Part shown: positions 6,711 through 60,727 of the stretch, one piece after another
Layout of the letters: each line of letters begins with the position of its first letter
How positions within the stretch are numbered: position 1 is the first letter of the stretch
DNA from: a virus
Length of the DNA: 62,363 bases
Direction: 5' to 3' (one strand)
IMG/VR virus record: IMGVR_UViG_3300045988_026745
Position numbers and translations under genes: made by a program
Notes under the pieces: generated by a model
The model's input: the letters and a program-made list of their open reading frames with translations, nothing else
Databases searched by the model: none
What the model was told of the DNA's origin: nothing

Positions 6711-6748
6711 TTTAAGTTTCTCCTTTCATATTAAGAAAATTTATTATT

Positions 6749-6780
6749 CTTCCATTAAAGCGCATGTAATTTTTGCGAAT
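6749..6780 (-). promoter_or_regulatory. Conserved promoter-like module, copy 1
   Basis: Minus strand: ATTCGCAAAAATTACATGCGCTTTAATGGAAG. Consensus of at least 11 copies: aTTCGCGAAAAwTACATGnnCTTTAATGAGAG. Confidence 0.45.
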
Positions 6781-7547
6781 TAATATACAAATTTATGATA
6801 GTCATATCTTGGTGCTATCTCATATTCAATATAAATACACGGTCTTCCGTCGTCTGTAATTTGAGATGAGAAGTCAATCTCTATCTGGCCTTCATTCATG
6901 TTCCAACCCAACTCCTCACTAAGACTTGTCGGTGATAAACCAATCTCACTGTAGAATTCTGTCAACGATACACTCATTTCATTAAGTAATCGTCGGTTTA
7001 TCGTATTTACTGCTTTTTCGATAGTGTTCATATCGGACTTAAAATATCGTCCTGATATAGAATCGCAGAAAAGACTTTCTCCTTTGTCTGTTATAATCAC
7101 TTCAGACTTAGTTACAGGATTCTTTTCCATTTTATCTTTAGCGATAGCAGATCTAATGTCTTTTGCTTTCTCTTCGCCAACGGTTTCAATAACTTTCTCC
7201 TTATACTCAGCAAGAGCTGTTTCGGATAATTTATAAGCTGTAGCGAGAGCTGCTTTTCTTCTAAGATTTACTGAGTTTGCTCCTATAAGACATCCCACTG
7301 ATGCTACTCCAAGAAGAGTTGCTGGAATATAACATTTCCATGTTACTTTTACTTTCTCTGGAACAGTAAGATCTTCTTCCTTGTCATATCGAGCATCCTC
7401 CATAAGTTTCAGAGCCTTTGGTGTTGCTTTTACAGCAAGTACAGTAGTGGTAATCATACCGGCAATACCTATTCCTGTAAGAATTTCAGGACTATGTTTT
7501 GATGCAGTATTTCTAGCTGCTTTGAAAAATACACTTAATTTACTCAT
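6780..7547 (-). CDS. Membrane-hairpin protein, paralogue 2 of 3 (255 aa)
   Basis: 'SKHSPEILTGIGIAGMITTTVLAVKATPKALKLMEDA' closely matches paralogue 3 ('...VVATTITAVKATPKALRLIEEA'). C-terminal motif: 'LTEFYSEIGL...LGW'. Confidence 0.8.
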   Translation of the reverse strand: MSKLSVFFKAARNTASKHSPEILTGIGIAGMITTTVLAVKATPKALKLMEDARYDKEEDLTVPEKVKVTWKCYIPATLLGVASVGCLIGANSVNLRRKAALATAYKLSETALAEYKEKVIETVGEEKAKDIRSAIAKDKMEKNPVTKSEVIITDKGESLFCDSISGRYFKSDMNTIEKAVNTINRRLLNEMSVSLTEFYSEIGLSPTSLSEELGWNMNEGQIEIDFSSQITDDGRPCIYIEYEIAPRYDYHKFVY

Positions 7548-7604
7548 TGTTTTCTCCCTTCATATAAGCGTGATTTGAAAATATAACAAAAAGAAAGAGT
7601 CCAA

Positions 7605-7751
7605 TCAGGACCCTCTCTTCATTTGTTTAGCGACCTCCTTCGCAATTTTTTCATTCAGATCTTTGTCAGCAAAGTAGTTAGCTGCAATTGGTACTGCAAC
7701 CCCCAATACTTTGACCGCCACTTTAGCTGCTTTCATAATCGTTGCGTTCAT
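7605..7751 (-). CDS. Small membrane peptide (48 aa)
   Basis: Track ORF 7605..7802. I prefer ATG 7751 after 'gaaaggagacgattat'. Starts MNATIMKAAKVAVKVLGVAVPIAANYF... Confidence 0.5.
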   Translation of the reverse strand: MNATIMKAAKVAVKVLGVAVPIAANYFADKDLNEKIAKEVAKQMKRGS

Positions 7752-7766
7752 ATAATCGTCTCCTTT

Positions 7767-7797
7767 CTTCATAATAGGAGTTGTTTTTTTTGCGAAT
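7767..7797 (-). promoter_or_regulatory. Conserved promoter-like module, copy 2 (degenerate)
   Basis: Minus strand: ATTCGCAAAAAAAACAACTCCTATTATGAAG. Confidence 0.35.
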
Positions 7798-7798
7798 A

Positions 7799-8572
7799 TC
7801 AATAACGTTCTAAGAAATCATAAGTAGGCTCAAATGGCATTTCAATAATATAAACATCTTTACCTTCCTCAGATTCCAATTTTCTATGATTGAAGTCAAT
7901 CCAGTACATGCCATCATCGTTAGGAGCCCAACCTAGAACAGATCCATAGTCGGTCTCTTCGATACCAAGAAACTCATAGAATTCATTCAAGTAAGAATAT
8001 CCTCTTAAAATATAATTCCTATTCAAGTGATATTCGGCTGTTAAGACTTGTTCAATAGTAGATTCAAAATATCTACCTGAGTGTTCGTCATAGAATACTT
8101 GTGGTTCGCCATTATTCTCCTCTAACGCTAGATCACAATTAGTTCCTAAATATGATCCTCGTACACCAACGTCCTCAGCCTTCTCAATAGCAATTGCTTC
8201 TCGGACCTCTTGATCTACTTCTTCGCCATAAAGTTCCTTTAGCTTTCTTCGATAATCTTTGTATGATTGATCTACAAGAGCGTATGCACTCATTAGAGCT
8301 GCTTGCTGGCGTTGGTTTAGGATATGCGCACCGAATACACAAACGAGCGTCGATATACCAAGTCCAACCGTAGGGATATAAGTCGGTCCTGCTGTTTTTA
8401 CTTTTTCCCATTTCGTTAATCGTTCTCCTTTCTTTTGTTCGGCTTCTTCAATTAAACGAAGAGCTTTTGGTGTTGCTTTTACTGCTGTGATTGTTGTAGC
8501 TACTACCCCAACGCCTCCTAAACAAGTTAAAATAGTTGAAGCATTGTGTTTGATGAATAGTCGCGAATTCAT
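7799..8572 (-). CDS. Membrane-hairpin protein, paralogue 3 of 3 (257 aa)
   Basis: See 4322..5251. C-terminal motif: 'YLNEFYEFLGIEETDYGSVLGW'. A structured leader (8603..8729) precedes it. Confidence 0.8.
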   Translation of the reverse strand: MNSRLFIKHNASTILTCLGGVGVVATTITAVKATPKALRLIEEAEQKKGERLTKWEKVKTAGPTYIPTVGLGISTLVCVFGAHILNQRQQAALMSAYALVDQSYKDYRRKLKELYGEEVDQEVREAIAIEKAEDVGVRGSYLGTNCDLALEENNGEPQVFYDEHSGRYFESTIEQVLTAEYHLNRNYILRGYSYLNEFYEFLGIEETDYGSVLGWAPNDDGMYWIDFNHRKLESEEGKDVYIIEMPFEPTYDFLERY

Positions 8573-8602
8573 TTCTCCTCAGCACCTTTGTAAGTTATTT
8601 GG

Positions 8603-8729
8603 TAAAAATAAAAGAGAATAGGATCTGGGCGCCGTTCTTTAATCCCGTCCTACGGGGAACCCTTTCATCCGGAGTCAAACCGGCCGTGTATCCATAATAG
8701 ATTTCCTGCCTCGTGGTCTCCTATTCTCT
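8603..8729 (-). ncRNA. GC-rich structured leader or small RNA ending in a T-tract (candidate attenuator/sRNA)
   Basis: On the minus strand it starts at the end of promoter module copy 3. An 11-nt 5' arm AGAGAATAGGA (8729..8719) pairs perfectly with TCCTATTCTCT (8623..8613), followed by TTTATTTTT. Inner hairpins: CCGG-TTTGACT-CCGG and CCCGT-AGG-ACGGG. It is a GC-rich outlier in an AT-rich region. Confidence 0.35.
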
Positions 8730-8756
8730 CATTAAACAACATGTAATTTTCGCGAG
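8726..8756 (-). promoter_or_regulatory. Conserved promoter-like module, copy 3
   Basis: Minus strand: CTCGCGAAAATTACATGTTGTTTAATGAGAG. Confidence 0.45.
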
Positions 8757-8813
8757 TTCGCGATACTCACTATTCCTCACTTTGTTCGAAAAGAAAATAT
8801 AAAAGAAAGAGGG

Positions 8814-9047
8814 CTAAGCCTCCTCCTCTAAGTTTGCCAATCTTGTAAGTTTCAATAAACTTGTCTCATCAATATCTGCATCCACGTCAATATGTAGATG
8901 TATCTTATCGTTAATCTTTTCAACAGATATACCATTAAGTTGAATATCTGCTTTTATACCCAACTTATTTGCTATAACTTTTGAAGCGATTTTAGCAACA
9001 ATACCTCTCATAAATTTTGTAGATATTTTAATTTTCATTTCGTCCAT
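8814..9047 (-). CDS. Hypothetical protein (77 aa)
   Basis: ORF track. A 'gaaggagaggtaaat' SD precedes the ATG. Confidence 0.7.
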   Translation of the reverse strand: MDEMKIKISTKFMRGIVAKIASKVIANKLGIKADIQLNGISVEKINDKIHLHIDVDADIDETSLLKLTRLANLEEEA

Positions 9048-9071
9048 ATTTACCTCTCCTTCTTATTGGTT

Positions 9072-9101
9072 TCTCATAATAGAAGTTGTAAAAATAACGA
9101 A
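9072..9101 (-). promoter_or_regulatory. Conserved promoter-like module, copy 4 (TATTAT variant)
   Basis: Minus strand: TTCGTTATTTTTACAACTTCTATTATGAGA. Confidence 0.35.
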
Positions 9102-9126
9102 AAGAAAGAGCCCTTGTTAGGACTCA
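9099..9126 (-). terminator. Intrinsic terminator after 9124..9492
   Basis: Minus strand: GAGTCC-TAACAA-GGGCTC hairpin followed by TTTCTTTTCGTTATTTTT. Confidence 0.6.
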
Positions 9127-9492
9127 TTCGAAGTAGAGAATTATAGTTCCTCCTACAACATCAATTTTTGTTTTATACATTTTTTGTTTCAACATATTTG
9201 CTACTTCCCGTACGGATAGTTTGCTTGTGAATCCATAGAATACTAAATCATTCATGGTGTACACATGTCCATTTGTACCTTTTGTTTCAATGTCATATGT
9301 GTATTCACCAAGACAATCCATTGCTCCTAATTCTTCTACAACTTTGTTTTTATCCGCACATAACTGAATTACAGCTAACCCTTTTCTACCTATTAAATAT
9401 AGCGTGCATCTATCATAGACTGGATGATTACAAGTATGTATTATTCCGAATACTGAAGAATATAGTTTTGGTTTCTCGTAATGATATCTCAT
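9124..9492 (-). CDS. Hypothetical protein (122 aa)
   Basis: ORF track. Starts MRYHYEKPKLYSSVFGIIHTCNHPVYDRCTLYLIG... Confidence 0.7.
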   Translation of the reverse strand: MRYHYEKPKLYSSVFGIIHTCNHPVYDRCTLYLIGRKGLAVIQLCADKNKVVEELGAMDCLGEYTYDIETKGTNGHVYTMNDLVFYGFTSKLSVREVANMLKQKMYKTKIDVVGGTIILYFE

Positions 9493-9540
9493 AAATCACC
9501 ACCTGGAAGTGTGTTCCACACCATTTCTTACTTTGTTCGA

Positions 9541-9600
9541 AAAACAAAAAAAAAAAAACGAAGACACCAAGTTTCCTCAGCGTCCCCGTTTGGTTTCGTA
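9541..9600 (-). terminator. Long hairpin + T13 terminator after 9602..9994
   Basis: Minus strand: ACGAAACCAA...TTGGTGTCTTCGT followed by 13 T (A13 on the plus strand at 9546..9558). Confidence 0.65.
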
Positions 9601-9601
9601 C

Positions 9602-9994
9602 TTACAACTTCATTTTCAAAGCATCTCTTAAACTAGCTTTCCCGGCTGTAGATGTAAGGACATCAACCTTTTCCCATTTCATAGAGAATAATCCCATTCC
9701 AACAGCAACTACTACAGGTAATACAAATTTACCAACCTCGATAAAGTTCTTAGTATTCCGATCCTTACGATCAAGCTCCATCTGATCTCGTTTGATCTGC
9801 TCATCCATATCATGGTTTGCAGCATCATTCTCAATCTGAAGCTCAATTCGTTCAAGCTCGGTTAACTGTTTCTCAATATCAGTTAATCGGTTCATTTGTG
9901 TTCTGTAAAGCTCCTTGTCTTTTACAGGATCAATATCAGAAAGGTACTCCAATTCCTTTTTCCATACATCTTTAAGTTCTGTTTTAAAGCTCAT
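9602..9994 (-). CDS. Coiled-coil protein with C-terminal TM helix (130 aa)
   Basis: ORF track. An 'aaaggaggattaaaa' SD precedes it. Hydrophobic helix: 'FVLPVVVAVGMGLF'. Confidence 0.75.
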   Translation of the reverse strand: MSFKTELKDVWKKELEYLSDIDPVKDKELYRTQMNRLTDIEKQLTELERIELQIENDAANHDMDEQIKRDQMELDRKDRNTKNFIEVGKFVLPVVVAVGMGLFSMKWEKVDVLTSTAGKASLRDALKMKL

Positions 9995-10027
9995 TTTTAA
10001 TCCTCCTTTAAAATTAGGGTTAATACG

Positions 10028-10058
10028 TTTCCATTAAAGACTATGTATTTTTTACGAG
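10028..10058 (-). promoter_or_regulatory. Conserved promoter-like module, copy 5 (overlaps the 3' end of 10052..10261)
   Basis: Minus strand: CTCGTAAAAAATACATAGTCTTTAATGGAAA. Confidence 0.4.
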
Positions 10059-10261
10059 TCGATTTTTTCTAAGATAATGAAGTCTTTTTTGAGTAAATCT
10101 TGATTAGGTGTAACTTTCATATTAATTTTGTAGAATCCAGTGTTATCCTCGTCGTATGGTTCGAGTGTAAAATGTCCATAAGCTGATGAACGTCGGACAC
10201 CTATCTTTGATACGATAATCCCTATAACTACACCTCCTAAGAAAACAAATAAATACAACAT
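10052..10261 (-). CDS. Small membrane protein (69 aa)
   Basis: ORF track. A 'taaggaggtagaagc' SD precedes it. Starts MLYLFVFLGGVVIGIIVSKI... Confidence 0.7.
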   Translation of the reverse strand: MLYLFVFLGGVVIGIIVSKIGVRRSSAYGHFTLEPYDEDNTGFYKINMKVTPNQDLLKKDFIILEKIDS

Positions 10262-10286
10262 GCTTCTACCTCCTTATAAAATACTT

Positions 10287-10316
10287 TTATCAAAAATCCC
10301 ACCCGGGGAATTTTTC
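10287..10316 (-). promoter_or_regulatory. Leader hairpin + T-run about 30 nt upstream of the RBS of 10052..10261 (attenuator-like)
   Basis: Minus strand: AAAAATTCCC-CGGGT-GGGATTTTTGAT. Confidence 0.35.
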
Positions 10317-10361
10317 ACTTTACAAATATAACTTTGTTTCCAGTCACCTACGTACGGATTT

Positions 10362-10396
10362 TAACCTAGATTAACCTTTGTTCTAACCTAGATTAA
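10362..10396. repeat. Direct repeat 'taacctagattaa' x2, 22-nt phasing (operator-like)
   Basis: Copies at 10362..10374 and 10384..10396, in the intergenic leader. Confidence 0.5.
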
Positions 10397-10427
10397 AGTT
10401 CAGTGCCCTCACATATTTTTACTACGT

Positions 10428-10470
10428 TTAAAAAATAAAAGAAAAAGACAAGACCCAATGTGGGCCTCAC
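10428..10470 (-). terminator. Intrinsic terminator after 10479..10835
   Basis: Minus strand: GGCCCA-CAT-TGGGTC hairpin followed by TTGTCTTTTTCTTTTATTTTTT. Confidence 0.6.
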
Positions 10471-10478
10471 CTTTGAGA

Positions 10479-10835
10479 TTAGTTTTCTTCGTTTTTGCAC
10501 ATGTCATCAATAGTCTTAAGTTTATCTTCTGACCACATAGGAGAATTCACTACGTCAATCACTGCTCTGTAGAAGTCTGGATTAGCATCTGTTCTAAGCA
10601 CTGCTACTGCTTTAGATTTGTCTTCCGAAAACATAGAACTGCGCATGATCGCTCTAACTGCATCGTCATATTTGACTGTACCAGTGTTATAGCGCATGAC
10701 ATCTAATTTTTCGATAGCTGTACTACTAAACAATACAACGCCAAGAATCGGGATTGCGTAATTCAAACCCTTTCTTCCGATTTCAACAATAGTGTCTACT
10801 CTTTCCTTGGTTACAATGTCCTTAATTCCTTTCAT
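10479..10835 (-). CDS. Membrane protein with internal 'S.M(F/W)SEDK.K' duplication (118 aa)
   Basis: Track ORF 10479..10952. I prefer ATG 10835 after 'aaaggaggtttttaac'. The longer form would run through a promoter module and a terminator hairpin. Confidence 0.7.
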   Translation of the reverse strand: MKGIKDIVTKERVDTIVEIGRKGLNYAIPILGVVLFSSTAIEKLDVMRYNTGTVKYDDAVRAIMRSSMFSEDKSKAVAVLRTDANPDFYRAVIDVVNSPMWSEDKLKTIDDMCKNEEN

Positions 10836-10858
10836 GTTAAAAACCTCCTTTGATTTTT

Positions 10859-10889
10859 TCTCATAATAGCCCTTGTTTAAGTCGCGAAT
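10859..10889 (-). promoter_or_regulatory. Conserved promoter-like module, copy 6 (TATTAT variant)
   Basis: Minus strand: ATTCGCGACTTAAACAAGGGCTATTATGAGA. Confidence 0.4.
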
Positions 10890-10890
10890 T

Positions 10891-11006
10891 AAAAATAAAA
10901 GAAAAAGTGTAAGTCTCTTGAGGGGCAAATTACTGCCATTCCTCAAGTTCAACTTACGTCTCCCAGGGTGTTGGGTGTTCTATAATTTGAACTATATCTT
11001 TCTCTC
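10891..11006 (-). ncRNA. Short promoter-to-terminator unit (candidate ~110-nt sRNA)
   Basis: Begins at the end of module copy 7. Contains a long hairpin GTAAG..CTTGAGG..GGCA-GTAATT-TGCC..CCTCAAG..CTTAC (10909..10957), followed by ACTTTTTCTTTTATTTTT. Module copy 6 comes next. Confidence 0.35.
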
Positions 11007-11033
11007 ATTAAAGAACATGTTATTTTCGCGAAT
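11002..11033 (-). promoter_or_regulatory. Conserved promoter-like module, copy 7 (near-consensus)
   Basis: Minus strand: ATTCGCGAAAATAACATGTTCTTTAATGAGAG. Confidence 0.45.
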
Positions 11034-11039
11034 CAGTTC

Positions 11040-11066
11040 AAATAAAAAGAGGACCGTTAGGCCCCC
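11040..11066 (-). terminator. Intrinsic terminator after 11057..11284
   Basis: Minus strand: GGGGGCC-TAAC-GGTCCTC hairpin followed by TTTTTATTT. Confidence 0.5.
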
Positions 11067-11284
11067 TTAAACTTGTCTAAATATAAAGCGTATTCCATCT
11101 CAACAATTATGTCTGTGATATTTTGTAATGTCTCTTTTACCTCAGTTAATGTCTCCAGTAATTCCTCTGACTTACATTCGTTCGTATCATTTTTTAAGTT
11201 ATCTACATCATACTCTAAAATATCAACAAGGCAATAAGCTAATCTTGCTTTATTCTGAAGCTCTCGTTTGACCCTTACATTCAT
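11057..11284 (-). CDS. Hypothetical acidic protein (75 aa)
   Basis: ORF track. ATGA start/stop overlap with the upstream small ORF. Confidence 0.7.
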   Translation of the reverse strand: MNVRVKRELQNKARLAYCLVDILEYDVDNLKNDTNECKSEELLETLTEVKETLQNITDIIVEMEYALYLDKFKGA

Positions 11285-11415
11285 TTCTCTTCCACCAACT
11301 CATCGTTTAATTCCTCACTAGCCTTGCCATGTTCTCTTAATGTCAATACTGCCTTTACCACACATCCAAATAAGATTGCTCCTGATATTACTGTTGTCAT
11401 TGTATCTTTCTTCAT
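11281..11415 (-). CDS. Small membrane peptide (44 aa), hand-called
   Basis: 'ggaggagacaaca' precedes the ATG. Translation: MKKDTMTTVISGAILFGCVVKAVLTLREHGKASEELNDELVEEK. Its stop overlaps the next ATG. Confidence 0.45.
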   Translation of the reverse strand: MKKDTMTTVISGAILFGCVVKAVLTLREHGKASEELNDELVEEK

Positions 11416-11433
11416 TGTTGTCTCCTCCAAATA

Positions 11434-11847
11434 TCAATCTCGTGATCCATCTAATAGCCAGAAGAACCGTCTGTACCTGTCATAGTACAAGTCTTTGCCA
11501 CACGGTATGTCCAACTTAGATTTTAAGTATGTATACGATAACCCCTCTGTGACCGCCTTTAAAATATAATCGTGTAAGTCCGCATCAGCCTCCTTAGCCA
11601 CTCGCTCAATTAACTCGATTCGTTCTAAATATCGCTCTCTACGTATCACCTCCTTAAAGGTTGGATCACTATGTATATTACTCTTATACAATATTTCATT
11701 TTTGAAATTTCTTATATTAGCAATATTATTGTATTCTTTCTTCCATTCTGGATACTGTAAGCAGAAATGTTTAAGTTCGTAATGTCGATGCTTATCTATC
11801 CAGTATTTATTCTTTCGAGAAATGTCCGGACGGATAACAGTAGCCAT
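11434..11847 (-). CDS. Putative phage transcriptional activator (ArpU/RinA/sigma-like), 137 aa
   Basis: 'YELKHFCLQYPEWKKEY...' together with the size recalls ArpU/RinA-type regulators. This is a recall-level call only. Confidence 0.4.
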   Translation of the reverse strand: MATVIRPDISRKNKYWIDKHRHYELKHFCLQYPEWKKEYNNIANIRNFKNEILYKSNIHSDPTFKEVIRRERYLERIELIERVAKEADADLHDYILKAVTEGLSYTYLKSKLDIPCGKDLYYDRYRRFFWLLDGSRD

Positions 11848-11975
11848 TACTTCTTAACACCTCTCTTATACTTATGGGAATCTTTTACGAGTTTGATGGT
11901 TGCTTTCTTTAATCGCTCTTTGTTCACCTCACCATGCACGTATATAGTAGCGTTCTTGAATCTGTATGTTTTCAC
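11847..11975 (-). CDS. Small basic protein (42 aa), hand-called, GTG start
   Basis: 'agaggtgatgattc' precedes the GTG. Translation: (M)KTYRFKNATIYVHGEVNKERLKKATIKLVKDSHKYKRGVKK. TAATG overlap with the next gene. Confidence 0.35.
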   Translation of the reverse strand: MKTYRFKNATIYVHGEVNKERLKKATIKLVKDSHKYKRGVKK

Positions 11976-11987
11976 GAATCATCACCT

Positions 11988-12293
11988 CTAAGATAAGAAA
12001 ATATCAATTGCTTCTAAATTAGTTAGATCTAAAAGTTCTTTAAGTTTGAGTGCATCGCCGATAGTAATTGCATCACTGCAACAGACCTTCTTACATAATT
12101 CGGCAGCTGTGTCAACATTTAAACTTTTTTCGAAAATCATAACTTTCAATTTATTTGCATCCAATGCACACACCTCTTTCTGATTGCGTTTCATGCAACA
12201 AGTAAAAGATAACATCATTCCAATTTTTCTGTCAATAGGTTTTTCGTGCATAAAATGCGAAATATCTAATCTAGGTTTGCTTTTTGTTTGCAT
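11988..12293 (-). CDS. Cro-like/early HTH protein, divergent from the repressor
   Basis: ORF track (101 aa). An alternative in-frame TTG at 12164, after 'agaggtg', would give a 58-aa Cro-sized protein and a ~180-bp switch region. Possible HTH: 'LNVDTAAELCKKV..SDAITIGDAL'. Confidence 0.6.
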   Translation of the reverse strand: MQTKSKPRLDISHFMHEKPIDRKIGMMLSFTCCMKRNQKEVCALDANKLKVMIFEKSLNVDTAAELCKKVCCSDAITIGDALKLKELLDLTNLEAIDIFLS

Positions 12294-12302
12294 ATGTGCA
12301 AA
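12287..12302. promoter_or_regulatory. Palindromic operator candidate in the repressor/Cro switch
   Basis: 'tttgca-tatg-tgcaaa'. Related half-sites 'tttcgtgca' (12242) and 'tttcatgca' (~12184) lie nearby. Confidence 0.4.
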
Positions 12303-12343
12303 TATTAATATATGATAATTGTTATTAGAAAGGAGACAAGATA

Positions 12344-12730
12344 ATGTCTATAGGAAAACGAATAAAAATGCTACGTACGAAAAGAGGTTTATCAATCGAT
12401 GATCTTGCAGCTAAGCTAGGTAAGAATAGAACAACTGTGTACAGATATGAGAATGGTGATATAGAGAATTTGCCATTGAGTATTCTTAATCCACTTGCTG
12501 ATGCTTTGGATACTACACCTGCTCATTTGATGGGTTGGGGTGATAAGGAAATGCTATCTACCAAAATATCAGATGGCAAAGAAGAAGCTGTATATTCGTC
12601 CGTAAACGAGACTTATGTGAAGCATGTAGAAGCTTGGCATAAGACATTTGGCATGGATCCTTTTACAGATGAGGAACATGAGAAATTAATGGAGTATGGT
12701 AAATTCTTAATCTCACAGAGACAAAAATAA
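12344..12730 (+). CDS. XRE-family (CI-like) repressor, 128 aa
   Basis: 'IGKRIKMLRTKRGLSIDDLAAKLGKNRTTVYRYENG' is a classic XRE HTH. An 'aaaggagacaagata' SD precedes it. It is divergent from the early operon and adjacent to the integrase. Confidence 0.85.
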   Translation: MSIGKRIKMLRTKRGLSIDDLAAKLGKNRTTVYRYENGDIENLPLSILNPLADALDTTPAHLMGWGDKEMLSTKISDGKEEAVYSSVNETYVKHVEAWHKTFGMDPFTDEEHEKLMEYGKFLISQRQK

Positions 12731-12854
12731 AAGAAAGTGTAGTCTTGTACAGTTCATTTCCTGCCCGAGAGTCGCTCGGTCTTATTTCTTATGTGACAGC
12801 ATCTCAGCTGCTGGGACTCTCACCCAGGACTCACTTCTGCTACTTCTTTCTCTC
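12731..12854 (-). ncRNA. GC-rich structured unit between repressor and integrase (candidate sRNA convergent with the repressor, or a bidirectional terminator)
   Basis: On the minus strand it follows module copy 8. Hairpins: CTGGG-TGAGAGT-CCCAG, CAGC-AGCTGAGAT-GCTG and CCGAG-CGACT-CTCGG. Closing pairing: AAGAAGTAG/CTACACTTTCTT. The TTTTATTTTTG tract overlaps the repressor's last codons. Confidence 0.3.
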
Positions 12855-12881
12855 ATAAAAGAGCATGTAAAATTAGCGAAG
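12850..12881 (-). promoter_or_regulatory. Conserved promoter-like module, copy 8 (points toward the repressor 3' end)
   Basis: Minus strand: CTTCGCTAATTTTACATGCTCTTTTATGAGAG. Confidence 0.4.
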
Positions 12882-12934
12882 GAGGTGATGCCAACTTATC
12901 CCCCTGGCAGTACATCATAGAAAGGAAGAACAGA

Positions 12935-14581
12935 ATGTATAAAGAATGTCCAAAGTTTTACAATTATGAAGTAAAAGAGTATGGAAGAAAGTCGCGTACG
13001 GACGACCCCTTACTCTCAACCGACGAAATACTCGAGAAGCACAGTAAGATTGTAGAGGAATATGCTGTTAAATATTTAGGCGGCCCAATCCCAGATGATA
13101 ACAAATATATGGAAGTAGCAAGTGGTGAATCACTTAAAGACCGTCCTGAGATAACTCGTTTGCTCAAAGATATAGAAGACCCTGCTGTCAAAGCTATAAT
13201 AGTAGTCGAGGTACAGCGTTTAAGTCGTGGCGACCTCGAGGATGCTGGTAGGCTTATAAGGTTGCTCAGATACACGAATACTTATGTAATCACTCCTATG
13301 AAAATATATGACTTACGTGATGAATATGATAGAGATGCATTCGAACGTGAGCTTAAACGAGGTAATGAATATCTTGAGTATTTTAAGAAGATTCAAGCTC
13401 GTGGTAGATTAGCAAGTGTTAAAGACGGTAACTATATTGGCTCAACGGCTCCTTATGGATTTGACCGTATAGAGAAATTTGAAGCTGATGGCAAGAAATC
13501 ATACCACACTCTAATCGAACGTAAGGACCAAGCTGATGTAGTCCGTATGATCTTTAACTGGTATTGCGAAGAAGATATAGGCGTTACAGCAATTTGTAGA
13601 AGACTTGAAGATATAGGAGCTAAGACTAAGACTGGCCAGAGTACCTGGAAACCAAGTATAATTTTCAGTATCTTAGAAAATCATCACTATATTGGCTGCA
13701 CACGTTGGAATTGGCGGAAAACTGTGAAAATAATTGAAGACCAAGAAATAAAGAAGTTACGTCCGAAGGCAAAAGTAGACGAGTTCTTATTATTCGAAGG
13801 AAAGCATGATGGTATTATCCCAGAAGAGCAATTTAACAAGGCTCGTGAAATTAGAGGTAAACGTCATAGGACTCGTAGGGACCTGACTCTTAAAAACCCA
13901 TTCAGTGGAATTATGTTCTGTAAGCGATGCGGTCATAAGATTGGTTATAACACTTACACTAGACATGGTATTGAATATGCTCCACCTAAACTCGTATGTA
14001 ATAACCAAGTACACTGTAAATCAGGTTCTGTAAAATATAGTGAAGTGTTTGAATACGTCCGTAGAGTCTTAAAAGACTGTATAAGCGACTTTGAAGTACG
14101 CATAGAGAATAACCAAGACGACTCGTTAAAACTCCATACAGACCTAATGGCCAGGCTCACAAAGCAACTTGCTGATCTCGAGAAGAAAGAATTGGAACAA
14201 TGGGATGCTCAGTACGACCCTGATCCAGCTAAGAGACTTCCTCAACATATCTTTGCCAAACTCAATGAGAAAGTGTTAAAAGAAAAAGAGGAAGTAAATA
14301 AAGCGTTAGCCAAAGCTAAAGACTCTGCTCCAAAACATATCAATTATCGAGATGAGTTAATTAAGACTAAAGATGCTCTGAGAATATTGGAAGATGTCGA
14401 ATTAGACGCTAAAACAAAGAATCAATATCTTAAAACAGTGATTTCTAAAATGGTGTACGAACGAGATCCAATTGTACAAATCACAAAAGACAATGCTGAG
14501 AAATATAACATGCAATCGTCCAAGGGTACAAAATACTATAACCCTCCCTATAAGATAACGATTGAGCTTAAGTGTGATTAA
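12935..14581 (+). CDS. int: Large serine recombinase (integrase), 548 aa
   Basis: N-terminal resolvase-type domain ('YGRKSRTDD', 'IIVVEVQRLSRGD'), a recombinase domain and a Cys-rich zinc-ribbon region ('FCKRCGHKIG...CNNQVHC') followed by a coiled-coil tail. Confidence 0.9.
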   Translation: MYKECPKFYNYEVKEYGRKSRTDDPLLSTDEILEKHSKIVEEYAVKYLGGPIPDDNKYMEVASGESLKDRPEITRLLKDIEDPAVKAIIVVEVQRLSRGDLEDAGRLIRLLRYTNTYVITPMKIYDLRDEYDRDAFERELKRGNEYLEYFKKIQARGRLASVKDGNYIGSTAPYGFDRIEKFEADGKKSYHTLIERKDQADVVRMIFNWYCEEDIGVTAICRRLEDIGAKTKTGQSTWKPSIIFSILENHHYIGCTRWNWRKTVKIIEDQEIKKLRPKAKVDEFLLFEGKHDGIIPEEQFNKAREIRGKRHRTRRDLTLKNPFSGIMFCKRCGHKIGYNTYTRHGIEYAPPKLVCNNQVHCKSGSVKYSEVFEYVRRVLKDCISDFEVRIENNQDDSLKLHTDLMARLTKQLADLEKKELEQWDAQYDPDPAKRLPQHIFAKLNEKVLKEKEEVNKALAKAKDSAPKHINYRDELIKTKDALRILEDVELDAKTKNQYLKTVISKMVYERDPIVQITKDNAEKYNMQSSKGTKYYNPPYKITIELKCD

Positions 14582-45437: not shown

Positions 45438-45713
45438 TTACGCCGGTACGTTGTCCTCTTTCTTTGTTTCTTTGTGATTTCTGTAAACTTTTTTATAAAT
45501 ATTTAAGAAATCGTTATCAATAATTGAATTTATTGCTCTTTCATGCTCTTCATCAGACTCTTTTTCACTCATGTCTTCATAAACATTCTCGATTCGTCCG
45601 AGTAATGCACATGTATTGTATCCTTTTGCAATGTCGAACAGAAACCATTGAGTGAACTGTTCAAATGGATCAAAAGGATTATCGAATGTTGTTAATCTAC
45701 AATCATTTGTCAT
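45438..45713 (-). CDS. Hypothetical protein (91 aa)
   Basis: ORF track. 'TTFDNPFDPFEQFTQWFLFDIAKGYNTCALLGR'. Confidence 0.7.
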   Translation of the reverse strand: MTNDCRLTTFDNPFDPFEQFTQWFLFDIAKGYNTCALLGRIENVYEDMSEKESDEEHERAINSIIDNDFLNIYKKVYRNHKETKKEDNVPA

Positions 45714-45731: not shown

Positions 45732-48629
45732 TTACGACTTAAGATACTTTGAAACAGTTGATGTAGAAACACCAAGCTTGTCAGCTATCTCAGCAATTGT
45801 ATAAGAAGCTGACATTGCTTTGATTCTATTAATCTTTGCTTGATTGATAGCTACTGATTGTTTAGGCATTGCTCTTTGTCTAAGTGAGTCTGGGTCGCAC
45901 TGGTTAAGTATGCGCTTAAGCTTAGACTCACTGATAGCACCTGCCTGAATAGCTTCCCATTCTTTATCGCTAATGACTATATTTCTATCTTTTCTTGAAA
46001 TAGATCCAACTTCTTCACGAGCTTTACTTAATGCTCTTTGACTATCTTTCCTTACATCTTTAGCTTTATATGTAACGCCTTCTTCTTCGGCCTTCTTCTT
46101 CTTAGCATTGATAGTGGCAGCCGCCATTCTGTTAGCTGTTCTTTCTCTAACTGTATTAAGTTCAGCTTTACGAAGTTTATCGTCAAGACTCTTTACTTCT
46201 GTATCATACTTTCTTTTAGCATCAGCGTTATATGCAACCTTACCTGCTTTAGTCATCTCAACCCTAGCTTTATTAGCTAATGATTTCATGCTGTTAGCAT
46301 AGTCAGCATAAACTAATTCCATTAGATGTCTGTATTCAGAAACTAATGTCATAGCATCATCTGTTTCAGCCATCTTTGTACTCTTCTGCTTACGAGTACG
46401 TACCTCAGTGACAGTCTCGCCTGTACGCTTATTGGTCTTGGTTATGGTATAGTCCGCATCGTCTGCCCTCCTATATAGAAGCGCTCCCTCAGGACGGGAT
46501 GGATCATAGTCTGGTCTACCCTTAATGTTTATGTGCGGCGTTCCCTGTCTCTTATCCACATCATACTCGCCCTTAGCACGAGAGATAAGTGTTGATGCTC
46601 CACCATATCTCATGCGACCATTCTTATCTTCATGAGCCTGGTATTCTTTTCTAAGAGCTGCTATGTTATTGTCTATCTCACTCTGCTTGTAGTCTAGCTT
46701 GTGCTTCTCAGCATCGATAACGACCATGGAGTGACGAACAGCTCTTGCCATCTTCTCAGGCGGCGCTCCTGCCAATGTCATGTCTGTAATAAGATTGGAG
46801 ATCTTACCCATCTCAGTATCAGTCTTCTTCATTACTTTGAATTCAGCGCCGTTACGATAGTAATGTTCTTTGCCATCTGAATCAACCTTCATGTCATGAT
46901 ACTGATAGGATTTAGAATCAAATCCAACTAATCCCTCAAGTGGATCTGTGGAAGTAATCTTAACCTTTCCACCTTTATCATGGGTTGGAATACACATAAC
47001 CGTATCGCCATCAAAGTCTGCCCCAGACAATCGCTCAGCAACCTTACTGTTAATACCTATAGCATCGATAGAAGTCTTACCAATCATCTTGATAGCTTCT
47101 GGGTTTTTATTATTAACAGTACAGATTGGTATTTCAAATGTACCACCATGAGGATATCGAATAAGAGCAAGCTTAGTTCCATCCGCATAGTTCGGAGCAT
47201 ATACTTCTTTTTCACTCATAGAAGTGACTGGCAGTATAACGTGATACTTCTGTCTAGGTAAAGCAGCAGCTTTTAGATCAACAGCGGCAGAATCGCAACT
47301 CTGAGCAAACTTATTTAAGTAATACTTCTTGATAGTTGGATTAGTAAGAGCCATGATTTCATCAAACTCAGACTGCTTGTCTGCTTTAGCAATGCCAAGC
47401 TGTTTCTTAGCCATAGATAAAGACTGTTTTGATAAGAACTGAGAAGGTAATGCATCTTTCCATTCATTCCATTCGCCTTCTTCTCTTGTCTTATTGATTA
47501 GACCAAGCTTCTTATTACCATTCTTATCCTCATACCAATACTGTCCACCCTTTTCTTTAACCAAAGCACCAAATGGATTGTCAGGATCATCTTTAATCTT
47601 CTTCAAGACATCCATTTTAGCAACATCTTTGGATTTGTTAGTGTTGAATATAACGTCAACACCTGGCGGAAAGTCTTTAGGGTCACCATAAACAGCCATA
47701 CCTTTCAAATATCGCTTACCGTCAACCATAATTCTGACCTGAGAATATCGTGATTCGCCAAGAGACAAGTCAGCAACACCAGGACGAAGTTCCATAACAC
47801 CATCCTTGTCGATACCGCCGTCTTCTTTATAACGGATTTTCAGTCGACTTGAGTCCATGCTTTCTGGATAATGGAATTTCTTTTCGAATGTTTTACCATC
47901 GTCCCTTGAAATATAATCATTGAGTGTCTGAATTCTATCAAGATCATATATTTCATTATGTTTTGTGCCTGGTTTACATAATACTCGCTGAGTTGTCATC
48001 TGCCCTTTGTTGGTCACCTGCGCAAAGCGACCACCATAAACTTCATATCCTCCTTCTGCTTGGAGAATAAAGAGGGCCTGATCTAATTTTTCTTTAGATA
48101 TATTAAGTTCTCTCTCAACACCAGCACCAACGTCAACCATACCTTTTTCATCAACATGTTTCTTGAGGAAATCTGCTGTTTCTCGAGCCTGCTTCATACG
48201 GAATTCTCTGTTAGGATCAAGTAAACTACGAACGGTTGATTCATTGATTCCCATTTTACGGCCAATCTCACTATTATTTAAACCATCGCTCTTCAAAGAT
48301 TGAGCTCTAGCAACATCATACGCTCGTCGTTCATCTTTAGCTATTCCATATACAGTTCTGAAGTCTGTAGAAGAATATCCGAGAGATTTAGCGATAGCAT
48401 TGTCGCCAGTATAGGTTTTACCAGTCTCTGGATCAGTATATGTAAAACCATTTTTTCGCATTTGCTCAACTCGACCATAGAAGTCTCTACCTGATTGATA
48501 TGGATCTTCACCTGATCCCCAAGGATATCTTCCCGATCTACGAGGCATTCCATAGTGTTCAAGATATTCTTCATCGGTCATTGAAGCAGAGTCAATATAT
48601 GATTTAATCTCTTCTGCTACAGCATTCAC
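45732..48629 (-). CDS. Candidate single-subunit two-barrel RNA polymerase (YonO/RdRP-like) with terminal HTH segments, 965 aa
   Basis: 'LIRYPHGGTFEIPICTV' (~47143-47170) is followed by 'LSGADFDGDTVMCIP' (DFDGD = 47004..47018). HTH-like segments: 'NNSEIGRKMGINESTVRSLL' (N-terminal) and 'YTIAEIADKLGVSTSTVSKYL' (C-terminal). Confidence 0.5.
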   Translation of the reverse strand: MNAVAEEIKSYIDSASMTDEEYLEHYGMPRRSGRYPWGSGEDPYQSGRDFYGRVEQMRKNGFTYTDPETGKTYTGDNAIAKSLGYSSTDFRTVYGIAKDERRAYDVARAQSLKSDGLNNSEIGRKMGINESTVRSLLDPNREFRMKQARETADFLKKHVDEKGMVDVGAGVERELNISKEKLDQALFILQAEGGYEVYGGRFAQVTNKGQMTTQRVLCKPGTKHNEIYDLDRIQTLNDYISRDDGKTFEKKFHYPESMDSSRLKIRYKEDGGIDKDGVMELRPGVADLSLGESRYSQVRIMVDGKRYLKGMAVYGDPKDFPPGVDVIFNTNKSKDVAKMDVLKKIKDDPDNPFGALVKEKGGQYWYEDKNGNKKLGLINKTREEGEWNEWKDALPSQFLSKQSLSMAKKQLGIAKADKQSEFDEIMALTNPTIKKYYLNKFAQSCDSAAVDLKAAALPRQKYHVILPVTSMSEKEVYAPNYADGTKLALIRYPHGGTFEIPICTVNNKNPEAIKMIGKTSIDAIGINSKVAERLSGADFDGDTVMCIPTHDKGGKVKITSTDPLEGLVGFDSKSYQYHDMKVDSDGKEHYYRNGAEFKVMKKTDTEMGKISNLITDMTLAGAPPEKMARAVRHSMVVIDAEKHKLDYKQSEIDNNIAALRKEYQAHEDKNGRMRYGGASTLISRAKGEYDVDKRQGTPHINIKGRPDYDPSRPEGALLYRRADDADYTITKTNKRTGETVTEVRTRKQKSTKMAETDDAMTLVSEYRHLMELVYADYANSMKSLANKARVEMTKAGKVAYNADAKRKYDTEVKSLDDKLRKAELNTVRERTANRMAAATINAKKKKAEEEGVTYKAKDVRKDSQRALSKAREEVGSISRKDRNIVISDKEWEAIQAGAISESKLKRILNQCDPDSLRQRAMPKQSVAINQAKINRIKAMSASYTIAEIADKLGVSTSTVSKYLKS

Positions 48630-49490: not shown

Positions 49491-49517
49491 GGTTGAGTCT
49501 CCTTTCTTTTATAGAGA

Positions 49518-49591
49518 TCGACTCTGTGAGATTCGAACTCACGACATACGGCTTATAAGGCCGGCGCTCTCACCTACTGAGCTAAGAGTCA
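49518..49591 (-). tRNA. tRNA-Ile, anticodon UAU (reads AUA)
   Basis: Minus strand: TGACTCT-TA-GCTC-AGTAGGTGA-GAGC-G-CCGGC-CTTATAA-GCCGT-ATGTC-GTGAG-TTCGAAT-CTCAC-AGAGTCG-A. The cloverleaf folds well (T-loop TTCGAAT, GG in the D-loop, U33). There is a 1:72 T-G wobble and no encoded CCA. Confidence 0.85.
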
Positions 49592-49641
49592 AAAATAAAG
49601 AGACAATAGATTAACCGAGAAACTGCCAAAATATTATCTCT
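49592..49641 (-). promoter_or_regulatory. Short leader hairpin + T-tract between promoter module copy 9 and the tRNA (terminator/attenuator-like)
   Basis: On the minus strand AGAGATAAT (49641..49633) pairs with ATTGTCTCT (49607..49599), followed by TTATTTTT, which abuts the tRNA 5' end. Confidence 0.35.
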
Positions 49642-49642
49642 T

Positions 49643-49672
49643 CTCTATAAAAGAGCATGTTATTTTAGCGTG
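49643..49672 (-). promoter_or_regulatory. Conserved promoter-like module, copy 9 (upstream of the tRNA and the late-gene block)
   Basis: Minus strand: CACGCTAAAATAACATGCTCTTTTATAGAG. Confidence 0.4.
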
Positions 49673-49681
49673 CTAGTTTGT

Positions 49682-53375: not shown

Positions 53376-53390
53376 GTTATCATCTCCTTT

Positions 53391-53422
53391 CTCTCATTAA
53401 AGGAGTTGTTTTTTACGCGATT
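53391..53422 (-). promoter_or_regulatory. Conserved promoter-like module, copy 10
   Basis: Minus strand: AATCGCGTAAAAAACAACTCCTTTAATGAGAG. It runs straight into the SD of 53229..53375. Confidence 0.45.
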
Positions 53423-60680: not shown

Positions 60681-60695
60681 AAATATCACTCCTTT

Positions 60696-60727
60696 CTCTC
60701 ATTAAAGGAGATGTAAATATCACGAAT
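60696..60727 (-). promoter_or_regulatory. Conserved promoter-like module, copy 11 (overlaps the replicase stop codon)
   Basis: Minus strand: ATTCGTGATATTTACATCTCCTTTAATGAGAG. Confidence 0.45.

Follow-up and report, generated by a model that had tools for sequence, protein, structure and literature searches.

A strand-specific promoter-like module accompanies the gene for a putative single-polypeptide RNA polymerase in divergent phages

Genome context and the module family

The window analysed here, a 62,363-nt stretch of viral DNA (IMG/VR record IMGVR_UViG_3300045988_026745), contains 11 copies of a dispersed promoter-like module and a gene for a 965-amino-acid (aa) putative single-polypeptide RNA polymerase (RNAP), which we propose as the reader of the module. 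A DNA polymerase gene of ~1330 aa on the minus strand is split by the window ends (2594->3, then 62361->60742), and its two alignment pieces have ~17 residues in common (aa 837-853 of the FP_oengus polymerase). Hence, the window represents a circularly permuted complete phage genome. Nearly all genes lie on the minus strand; the plus strand carries a serine integrase (12935-14581) and an XRE repressor (12344-12730). A canonical sigma-A switch promoter (12235-12206, with TTGACA and TG-TATCTT elements spaced by 18 bp) faces a cro-like gene. After this gene come ORF137 (11434-11847; ORF, open reading frame) and a series of monocistronic cassettes that each combine a module with an intrinsic terminator. 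The DNA polymerase, the helicase, a module-tRNA-endonuclease-exonuclease unit, the gene of the 965-aa protein and the structural genes follow in this order.

A preliminary description of this DNA had listed 11 copies of the module on the minus strand, in gaps upstream of genes or leaders, and had given a minus-strand consensus for them. We found all copies at the positions listed and the consensus to be correct. A weight matrix made from the 11 window copies (matrix 1, with 20 shuffles as control) recovers exactly 11 sites in the window, all on the minus strand and with scores of 31-48 bits; the runner-up site on either strand reaches 12 bits and the shuffle maximum is 11.9 bits. A second matrix, made from 351 unique sites of related genomes (matrix 2), returns the identical 11 sites (26.7-43.5 bits) and otherwise nothing above 3 bits on the minus strand. 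With no tail of weak copies, the module family is therefore discrete. A search with the strict consensus (up to 3 mismatches) gives 3 matches versus 0 expected. All copies are intergenic and lie 5' of a gene, a tRNA or a structured RNA (Table 1). The broad consensus of the 351 sites reads TT-CGC-G-AAA-www-ACA-nnnn-C-T-W-T-W-A-T-G-A-R-A, and T-rich DNA precedes it in the profile of the same sites.

Conservation in relatives and co-occurrence with the polymerase gene

To follow the module beyond the window we used 127 related loci, comprising 80 IMG/VR loci selected by homology to the 965-aa protein, 46 selected by homology to ORF137, and the phage MT835485. In the window and these loci together, 616 matches are found on the coding strand and 0 on the opposite strand. 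The same holds for a second set of 80 prophage loci from species-representative genomes, picked solely by RNAP homology (189 versus 0 matches, motif present in 78 of 80 loci). A Shine-Dalgarno (SD) sequence, a start codon and an ORF follow within 90 nt after 74% of the unique sites of the window and the 127 loci. Relative to the polymerase gene, the 80 IMG/VR polymerase loci have 234 matches upstream, none inside and none downstream, with a peak 0.5-1.5 kb upstream of the gene (75 matches across the 80 loci). Eleven more distant prophages (25 matches) also have modules downstream of the polymerase gene, mostly at 1.5-9 kb; modules between the polymerase and structural genes are seen, e.g., in loci L290, L298, L333, L337 and L341, but not in the window or its close relatives.

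The only GenBank phage similar to the window at the DNA level is MT835485, from human faeces, which has 13 copies on the equivalent strand. More divergent phages carry their own versions of the module: Lactococcus phage P078 (AATTTTAAGTTTTACATACCCTATAATGAGAGGA, at least 10 copies, with a core outnumbered among repeated 10-mers only by a poly-T run), Arthrobacter phage Gordon (cTCGCAAGAATTACAnnnnTTATAATGAGAAG, 9 copies directly after the lysis genes), Faecalibacterium phage FP_oengus (gACGCGAAAAAtnCAnnnnnCTTTATGGA, 15 sites, >12 bits), Streptomyces phage HotFries (TCGCAnGTTTTnCnnnnnTATAATGAGACCCCTAC, 5 copies in a genome of 61% G+C) and the oral siphovirus contig89 (TTCGCgnATTCnGCAnGGCnTATAATGAGACCCC, 5 copies). 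In all five, the modules lie on the coding strand in intergenic regions. RNAP identity to the window protein is 37-47% for these five phages and 37-57% when MT835485 is included. The motif and the polymerase gene occur together in seven divergent phages of three host phyla or classes. An IMG/VR scan with the DNA pattern alone returned at least 120 loci; among the matches listed, DUF6353 genes were seen in 47 of 120 and the polymerase in 17 of 120, within the short stretch covered at each locus.

The RNAP-negative control consists of two phages. FP_Brigit and FP_Mushu are temperate phages of F. prausnitzii that lack the RNAP, and the motif is absent from both (maximum 1.8 bits), whereas FP_oengus, which shares this host species, has the sites given above. 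Absence of the motif from polymerase-less phages of the same host species argues against a host-type promoter.

Conservation at equivalent positions, on which the preliminary description had staked its reading, is indeed found in relatives. The position ~1 kb upstream of the ORF137 homologue, which corresponds to module 12848..12881 of the window, is conserved, and its cargo varies: some relatives have the same RNA as the window, others a 23-aa peptide ORF or different ORFs. DUF6353 homologues stand next to modules in Gordon and P078, and three are present in FP_oengus (L145 22860-23627; L144 10755-11594; L146 6089-6910, 7440-8222 and 9655-10641). DUF6353 proteins are membrane-anchored, often occur as 2-3 paralogues, and are a cargo of the module region kept in every branch of the lineage, from Actinobacteria to Clostridia phages. 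We found no description of this motif in the literature searched, motif strings included.

Predicted start site, candidate reader and cassettes

Each copy had been described as containing a good -10-like hexamer and an upstream half that is not a TTGACA-type -35. The second point was borne out, and so was the presence of an A/T-rich hexamer, but the hexamer is not a good -10, because the A at its second position is absent from most copies. Among the 351 unique sites, A accounts for 42% and T for 50% at position 2, and the last T is kept in 98%; of 12 FP_oengus sites, 10 read CTTTAT and none has an A at position 2. In sigma-70 -10 elements this position is a near-invariant flipped-out A that is essential for melting. 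At 16-18 bp upstream of the hexamer, no sequence resembles TTGACA; TTCGCG stands 14 bp from it (15 bp if read as nTTCGC). A scan of the window with the sigma-70 consensus shows no enrichment over shuffles, and only one of its matches, a weak one (9/12), falls on a module. We also considered the ACA box as a -35 with a -10 further downstream, and rejected this arrangement: nothing is conserved 17 bp downstream, and a weak match occurs solely in the 6749 copy. The G that follows the hexamer is conserved in 92% of the 351 sites and leads into a purine-rich segment. Such conservation through the start region is typical of T7-class promoters and seldom seen at sigma-70 promoters. Overall, the module is not a sigma-70 promoter, and a strand-specific, dispersed element with no -35 and a non-sigma-70 hexamer supports the earlier proposal of a dedicated factor rather than plain sigma-A.

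The boundaries of the encoded RNAs point to the transcription start. The distance from the post-hexamer G to the first base of the gene is 2 nt for a tRNA-Phe (L107), a tRNA-Thr (L130) and a tRNA-like gene (L099), 1 nt for the tRNA-like gene of FP_oengus, and 5 and 6 nt for a tRNA-Glu (L126) and a tRNA-Ile (L116). In two noncoding RNAs (ncRNAs) of the window, ncRNA2 and ncRNA3, the 5' strand of the closing helix starts at the G itself; it starts at the second nucleotide in ncRNA1 and at the fourth in the tRNA leader. In all four, the 3' strand of the closing helix precedes a U-tract. Since a start 6-8 nt past the hexamer would truncate these tRNAs and RNA stems, we place +1 at the G directly after TWTWAT, most likely the true start as judged from these boundaries, and not a few nucleotides downstream of the hexamer, as had been expected. 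The most likely geometry, read from the sequences, is T7-like, with CGC at -24 to -22, ACA at -14 to -12, the hexamer at -6 to -1, and GAGA from +1.

Minimal promoter-tRNA-terminator cassettes were seen at four places (L107 12064-12175, L130 14014-14125, L099 13972-14100 and L146 2907-3015). Their tRNAs lie 1-2 nt past the predicted start, no CCA is encoded, and two of the four are called 'tRNA-???' and have aberrant anticodon loops. In the first three, a GA of the leader pairs with a UC past the acceptor stem and a U-tract comes next. In all four, a U-tract directly follows the leader-extended acceptor stem, which so doubles as the terminator hairpin.

The universal beta-prime motif is NADFDGD, and SGADFDGD of the 965-aa protein shares 6 of its 7 residues. 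An alignment of 16 sequences, 41-77% identical to the window protein, shows no variation at D538, D540, G541 and D542, and neither does one of 31 sequences. The protein matches phrog_4291, 'RNA-dependent RNA polymerase', from end to end (E = 0). Helix-turn-helix (HTH) domains stand near both termini, and the C-terminal one scores above the Pfam cut-offs for Sigma70_r4_2 (30.9 bits) and Sigma70_r4 (29.8 bits) and is present in 16 of 16 family members. Relatives were found in 251 phage records, 555 IMG/VR contigs and 310 species genomes. Hosts of phages with the family (tblastn) include Arthrobacter, Gordonia, Streptomyces, Lactococcus, Faecalibacterium and others, and bacterial genomes with relatives include Anaerobutyricum hallii, Faecalibacterium and many Lachnospiraceae. 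The family was described earlier as an HTH-flanked, two-barrel protein resembling RNA-dependent RNA polymerase (RdRP), with an HHpred match to RdRP family PF05183 (P = 95.7%) and both RNAP motifs (bioRxiv 10.1101/842583). Membership in the two-barrel class is putative and draws on the DFDGD motif, the PHROG match and this published profile hit.

Three candidate readers had been named: an ArpU/RinA-like ORF, which is ORF137, the XRE/RHH regulators, and a 'YonO-like' polymerase, which is the 965-aa protein. ORF137 has no Pfam match (E <= 0.01), falls into phrog_11237 of unassigned function, is placed in the early operon beside cro and not before terS, and has no tblastn homologue in the motif-bearing phages P078 and Gordon; we therefore rejected it. 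The XRE/RHH regulators are not lineage-wide and were dropped as well. The polymerase is by far the best of the three; hhalign gives no support for its likeness to YonO (probability 0.2%). The published list of lineage-wide proteins comprises structural proteins, a helicase, an HNH protein, a RecB-like exonuclease, an HTH protein and one small hypothetical protein (bioRxiv 10.1101/842583). Across the motif-bearing phages, whose hosts range from Clostridia to Actinobacteria, the HTH protein, i.e. the 965-aa protein, is the sole transcription-type protein common to all. Immediately behind the polymerase gene lies a gene for a 91-aa protein (45438-45713, minus strand; phrog_4303, function unassigned), and small ORFs occupy the same position in other phages, matched by position alone (Gordon gp89, P078 gp78, HotFries gp57 and FP_oengus gp56). 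The 91-aa protein may be the lineage-wide 'conserved hypothetical protein' of bioRxiv 10.1101/842583 and a partner of the polymerase.

A comparison of the 16 polymerases gives a hint of how the boxes may be recognized. The N-terminal recognition helix contains (N/S/R/P)ES(S/T)VR in 14 of 16 and NDSSVR in L094, and only in P078 is it changed to SPGSVT (SPGSVTNYA). Only in P078, too, is the CGC box replaced, by TTTTAAGT, with the ACA box kept; the CGC box is present in every motif-read phage among the other 15 polymerases. The start of the C-terminal helix, S-T/V-S-T, is kept in 14 of 16, P078 included. This covariation of helix and box in P078 hints that the N-terminal HTH reads the CGC box.

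Table 1. Modules, structured RNAs and polymerase features of the window. Scores are given as matrix 1/matrix 2.
Feature	Coordinates	Strand	Predicted +1	Score (bits)	Cargo, sequence or context
Module	60694..60727	-	G60700	42.6/36.2	ATTCGTGATATTTACATCTCCTTTAATGAGAGAA; 59-aa ORF 60680-60501, just downstream of the DNA polymerase gene
Module	53389..53422	-	G53395	40.0/38.0	48-aa ORF 53375-53229 and small genes after it
Module	49640..49673	-	~49646	31.0/29.1	operon: leader hairpin, tRNA-Ile(UAU), VRR-Nuc-like endonuclease, exonuclease, RNA polymerase; last module ahead of the 35-kb structural region
Leader hairpin	49593..49646	-			GAAGAGAUAAUA...UAUUGUCUCUUU then UAUUU; between module and tRNA; -16.2 kcal/mol, z = -4.1
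tRNA-Ile, anticodon UAU	49516..49592	-			ARAGORN; Rfam tRNA 67 bits
Module	12848..12881	-	G12854	42.0/35.7	in the repressor-integrase gap (both genes on the plus strand)
ncRNA1, 132 nt	12723..12854	-			U-tract end abuts the repressor 3' end, antisense; -45.5 kcal/mol, z = -2.8
Module	11000..11033	-	G11006	47.8/43.5	top consensus match
ncRNA2, 115 nt	10892..11006	-			5' GAGAGAAAG pairs with 3' CUUUUUCUU just before the U-tract; -37.5 kcal/mol, z = -6.3; equally stable shuffles 0/200
Module	10856..10889	-	G10862	37.9/34.6	ORF, ATG 10835 -> 10479
Module	10026..10059	-	G10032	33.0/27.8	130-aa ORF 9994-9602
Module	9069..9102	-	G9075	32.1/26.7	77-aa ORF 9047-8814; overlaps the U-tract of the preceding terminator 9125-9108
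Module	8724..8757	-	G8730	44.5/39.5	
ncRNA3, 126 nt	8605..8730	-			12-bp closing stem GAGAGAAUAGGA/UCCUAUUCUCUU from nucleotide 1, then U-tract; upstream of DUF6353 gene 8572-7799
Module	7764..7797	-	G7770	38.7/40.5	48-aa ORF 7751-7605
Module	6747..6780	-	G6753	43.5/38.5	89-aa ORF 6710-6441
DUF6353 paralogues	7799-8572 and 6780-7547	-			Pfam E = 4e-69 and 3e-85
Putative single-polypeptide RNA polymerase, 965 aa	45732..48629	-			proposed module reader
DFDGD (aa 538-542) in SGADFDGD	47004..47018	-			candidate metal-binding catalytic loop
N-terminal LuxR/GerE-type HTH, ~aa 100-140	48210..48332	-			recognition helix NESTVRSLL; HTH_28 and GerE at aa 115-138; phrog_3855
C-terminal sigma-70 region-4-like HTH, aa 918-964	45738..45878	-			helix STSTVSKYL

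Three structured RNAs are among the cargo. In an Rfam search ncRNA1-3 have no match, the tRNA alone passes the gathering score, and no relevant match with E <= 1 was found in 8500-13000. A blastn search of all related loci gives homologues of ncRNA1 in L100 and L112 (98-99%) and in L239 (84%) and none of ncRNA2 or ncRNA3 in the same loci; three ncRNA1 homologues are too few for covariation analysis. The fold of ncRNA3 has z = -1.4 overall, and its closing stem is perfect. It carries a T-arm-like hairpin, CCGGUUUGACUCCGG; in Gordon (L145 22469-22859), module-driven RNAs of ~60-80 nt have a canonical T-arm, GCGGTTCGAATCCGC. Read-through of the ncRNA1 terminator would yield an antisense transcript of the repressor (12344-12730, plus strand).

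The tails of the cassette terminators share the pattern CTYTTTCTTTTnnTWTTTT (8 matches versus 0.5 expected on the minus strand; tails at 7581-7599, 8793-8811, 9092-9110, 10429-10447, 10889-10907 and 12721-12739). The conserved tail, CTTTCTTTT, is complementary to the conserved start sequence, GAGAGAAAG. From this complementarity, the two ends of a cassette transcript, 5' and 3', could pair with each other, or the tails could provide homology for cassette exchange. A second exact-register repeat, TTTTCGAACAAAGTRAGRAATRGTG, is present at 8768-8792 and 9519-9543 on the minus strand (2 copies versus 0 expected). Each copy directly follows a terminator; one lies 11 nt 5' of the module that begins at 8757 and the other just 5' of the ORF 9492-9124. 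At ~7561-7597 (minus strand), 5' of the second DUF6353 gene, TTTTTGTTATATTTTCAAATCACGCTTATATGAAGGGAG resembles a decayed or indel-bearing module and has no matrix score.

Interpretation, rival explanations and known systems

With moderate confidence, we suggest that the modules are promoters read by the phage's own 965-aa RNA polymerase and not by the host sigma-A holoenzyme. The motif is strand-specific, co-occurs with the polymerase gene throughout the lineage and has non-sigma-70 features; from these observations we infer the identity of the reader and the assignment of one HTH to each box. In the proposed mechanism, the N-terminal HTH would read the CGC(G/A)AAA box at -24 to -18 and the C-terminal HTH the (A/T)ACA box at -15 to -12, followed by a C at -7. 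The catalytic core, with SGADFDGD, would open TWTWAT at -6 to -1 as an A/T-rich melting segment and start at G+1. The purine-rich initially transcribed sequence GAGAGAA would then merge, in many copies, into the SD sequence of the cargo gene. With 10 bp from one conserved patch to the next, all three face the same side of the helix. Modules would head short promoter-cargo-terminator cassettes for small membrane proteins, DUF6353 genes, a tRNA and structured RNAs, and the last module, ~1 kb upstream of the polymerase gene, would head a unit that runs through this gene into the module-free 35-kb structural region. We give about even chances to the broader proposition that this is a sigma-free polymerase family with two fused sigma-region-4-like HTHs, each reading one of two boxes 10 bp apart, and with initiation right after the hexamer, for which the module would be the first promoter consensus.

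Several points weigh against this interpretation. Among homology comparisons of the protein, hhalign detects no similarity to YonO, phmmer and hmmsearch against PDB return HTH matches only, and among the Pfam matches listed for 16 family members at E <= 10 there are only HTH families and no RdRP. An AlphaFold2 model built from a shallow alignment has a mean predicted local distance difference test (pLDDT) score of 60, with the catalytic region below 30. Foldseek with this low-confidence model finds nothing at E <= 0.001 and QDE-1 at E = 3.5, a result that is meaningless given the pLDDT of the catalytic region. The literature searched holds no biochemical data on any family member, and a single contrast between lineages underlies the assignment of HTHs to boxes. 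The polymerase gene follows a module, so its first products need a bootstrap, which could come from sigma-A switch-promoter read-through, from a weak host promoter or from enzyme carried in by the virion. In lytic relatives the modules lie in an early-looking region, whereas YonO transcribes late genes (PMC5467207). Classical intrinsic terminators, of a kind tuned to bacterial RNAP, close the cassettes, and the hexamer of P078, Gordon and HotFries is a perfect or near-perfect TATAAT, at which the host holoenzyme could fire too.

In one alternative, host RNAP is redirected to the modules, either by a phage specificity factor of the sigma or MotA type or by the 965-aa protein acting as a mere DNA-binding adaptor. 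The -10-like hexamer, which is a perfect TATAAT in P078 and Gordon, fits such a model, as do the intrinsic terminators and a box in place of the -35, an arrangement that recalls the MotA-dependent middle promoters of T4; the 965-aa protein has sigma-region-4-type HTHs and its polymerase fold is putative. However, the polymerases and sigmas of Arthrobacter, Streptomyces, Lactococcus and Clostridia would all need identical retargeting, and no small sigma-like protein is conserved lineage-wide. Most sites, and all those of FP_oengus, have no A at hexamer position 2, tRNAs begin 2-3 nt past the hexamer, too near for a sigma-70-type start, and the invariance of SGADFDGD favours catalysis. We consider redirected host RNAP unlikely, though the need for a bootstrap, the early-region placement, the intrinsic terminators and the TATAAT hexamers leave it some weight.

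We judge it extremely unlikely that the modules are just strong sigma-A promoters of the usual kind, serving an early or accessory region and alike through recent cassette duplication. Their place upstream of genes, the A/T-rich hexamer and the T-rich DNA before it would agree with this, and monocistronic promoter-terminator cassettes are typical of host-transcribed early regions such as that of SPO1. But a TTGACA-like element at 16-18 bp is lacking and the consensus scan stays at the level of shuffles, whereas the genome's own switch promoter is canonical; moreover, the motif is kept between phyla and absent from other phages of the same host, its conservation extends through the start region, and the tRNA boundaries are incompatible with sigma-A initiation. 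Very unlikely, too, is a role that is not primarily that of a promoter, with the module marking cassette boundaries for recombination or moron exchange, or acting as an RNA processing or stability signal. The cargo at one genomic position does vary among close relatives (small ORF, ncRNA or tRNA), and the complementarity between the start sequence and the terminator tail could serve recombination. Absolute strand specificity, a fixed place 5' of SDs, tRNAs and closing stems, the 10-bp phasing and the co-occurrence with the polymerase favour a promoter instead, and cassette shuffling is no obstacle to promoter function and is probably secondary to it.

If the modules are indeed promoters of the 965-aa polymerase, the pair would be a host-independent, portable transcription system, since it has stayed matched in phages of Actinobacteria, Lactococcus and Clostridia. 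It would also be a candidate orthogonal polymerase/promoter pair across very different hosts, and tRNA and tRNA-like cassettes would use the acceptor stem as a terminator hairpin. The family is widespread, in many SEA-PHAGES actinobacteriophages and in prophages of many human gut Clostridia. A defined 30-nt candidate promoter with a predicted start makes the putative polymerase directly testable in vitro. The module would also explain the gene-cassette architecture of these genomes, and annotators could use it to locate transcription units, tRNA cassettes and small RNAs across hundreds of genomes.

Private promoters of phage polymerases have precedents in T7, N4, phiKZ/AR9 and P23-45. For the HTH-flanked polymerase family no promoter is reported in the literature searched, and the module is most likely its so far undescribed promoter. 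Late activators of the ArpU/RinA/Alt type in Gram-positive phages offer one comparison, a small protein that switches on a phage regulon; ORF137 has no ArpU/RinA Pfam match. Promoters of the sigma-less phiKZ and AR9 non-virion RNAPs are, like the module, short A/T-rich motifs near the start (TATG at the start of phiKZ late promoters and an AACA element in AR9 late promoters, which we take as leads only), but those enzymes are multisubunit and their motifs much shorter. T4 middle promoters, the case of 'sigma appropriation' with a MotA box at -30 and a sigma-70 -10, likewise define a phage-specific regulon in which a box nearer to the A/T-rich hexamer replaces the -35. However, they keep a true -10 and start ~7 nt downstream of it, whereas in the module A2 is dispensable and the start is placed directly after the hexamer, and no MotA- or AsiA-like proteins are conserved in the window lineage.

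Closer parallels come from single-polypeptide enzymes with a DxDGD loop: YonO of SPbeta, gp66 of the crAss-like phage phi14:2, and gp96/gp64 of Thermus phage P23-45. In P23-45, each two-barrel RNAP is paired with its own promoter motif, which is found where the gene for that enzyme is found; AT-rich and GC-rich are the terms used for these motifs (bioRxiv 10.1101/2022.12.01.518664), and we set them beside the module by this description alone. YonO transcribes a long late operon from one start, upstream of an unannotated ncRNA, and its promoter sequence was left undetermined in 2017 (PMC5467207). This start with its ncRNA is reminiscent of the modules followed by RNAs, and of the long late unit devoid of modules, in the window. 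Unlike YonO, the window family has N- and C-terminal HTHs and no detectable sequence similarity to it, and in contrast to the single late promoter of YonO the window has numerous modules, most of them in the early or accessory region. In the 1.7-kb non-coding gap between yonN and yonK of SPbeta (L148 9153-10835, minus strand), the reported YonO start region, GGCTTATAATGGG occurs near 9880. It resembles the hexamer region of the Gordon module and may be a coincidence, the published YonO start not being placed on this record.

T7, T3 and SP6 promoters are, like the module, dispersed, strand-specific and phage-private, and each forms a contiguous block of ~30 bp in which an upstream specificity region is followed by an A/T-rich melting segment that abuts the start. 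The T7 sequence TATA-GGGAGA compares directly with TWTWAT-GAGAGA of the module, both having a G start and a purine-rich initial transcript. Unlike the T7 promoter, the module is longer, reaching -25, and its two discrete boxes are separated by one helical turn; the window polymerase, unrelated to T7 RNAP, has no T7-type Pfam domain, and carries instead a beta-prime-like ADFDGD loop and two fused HTHs.

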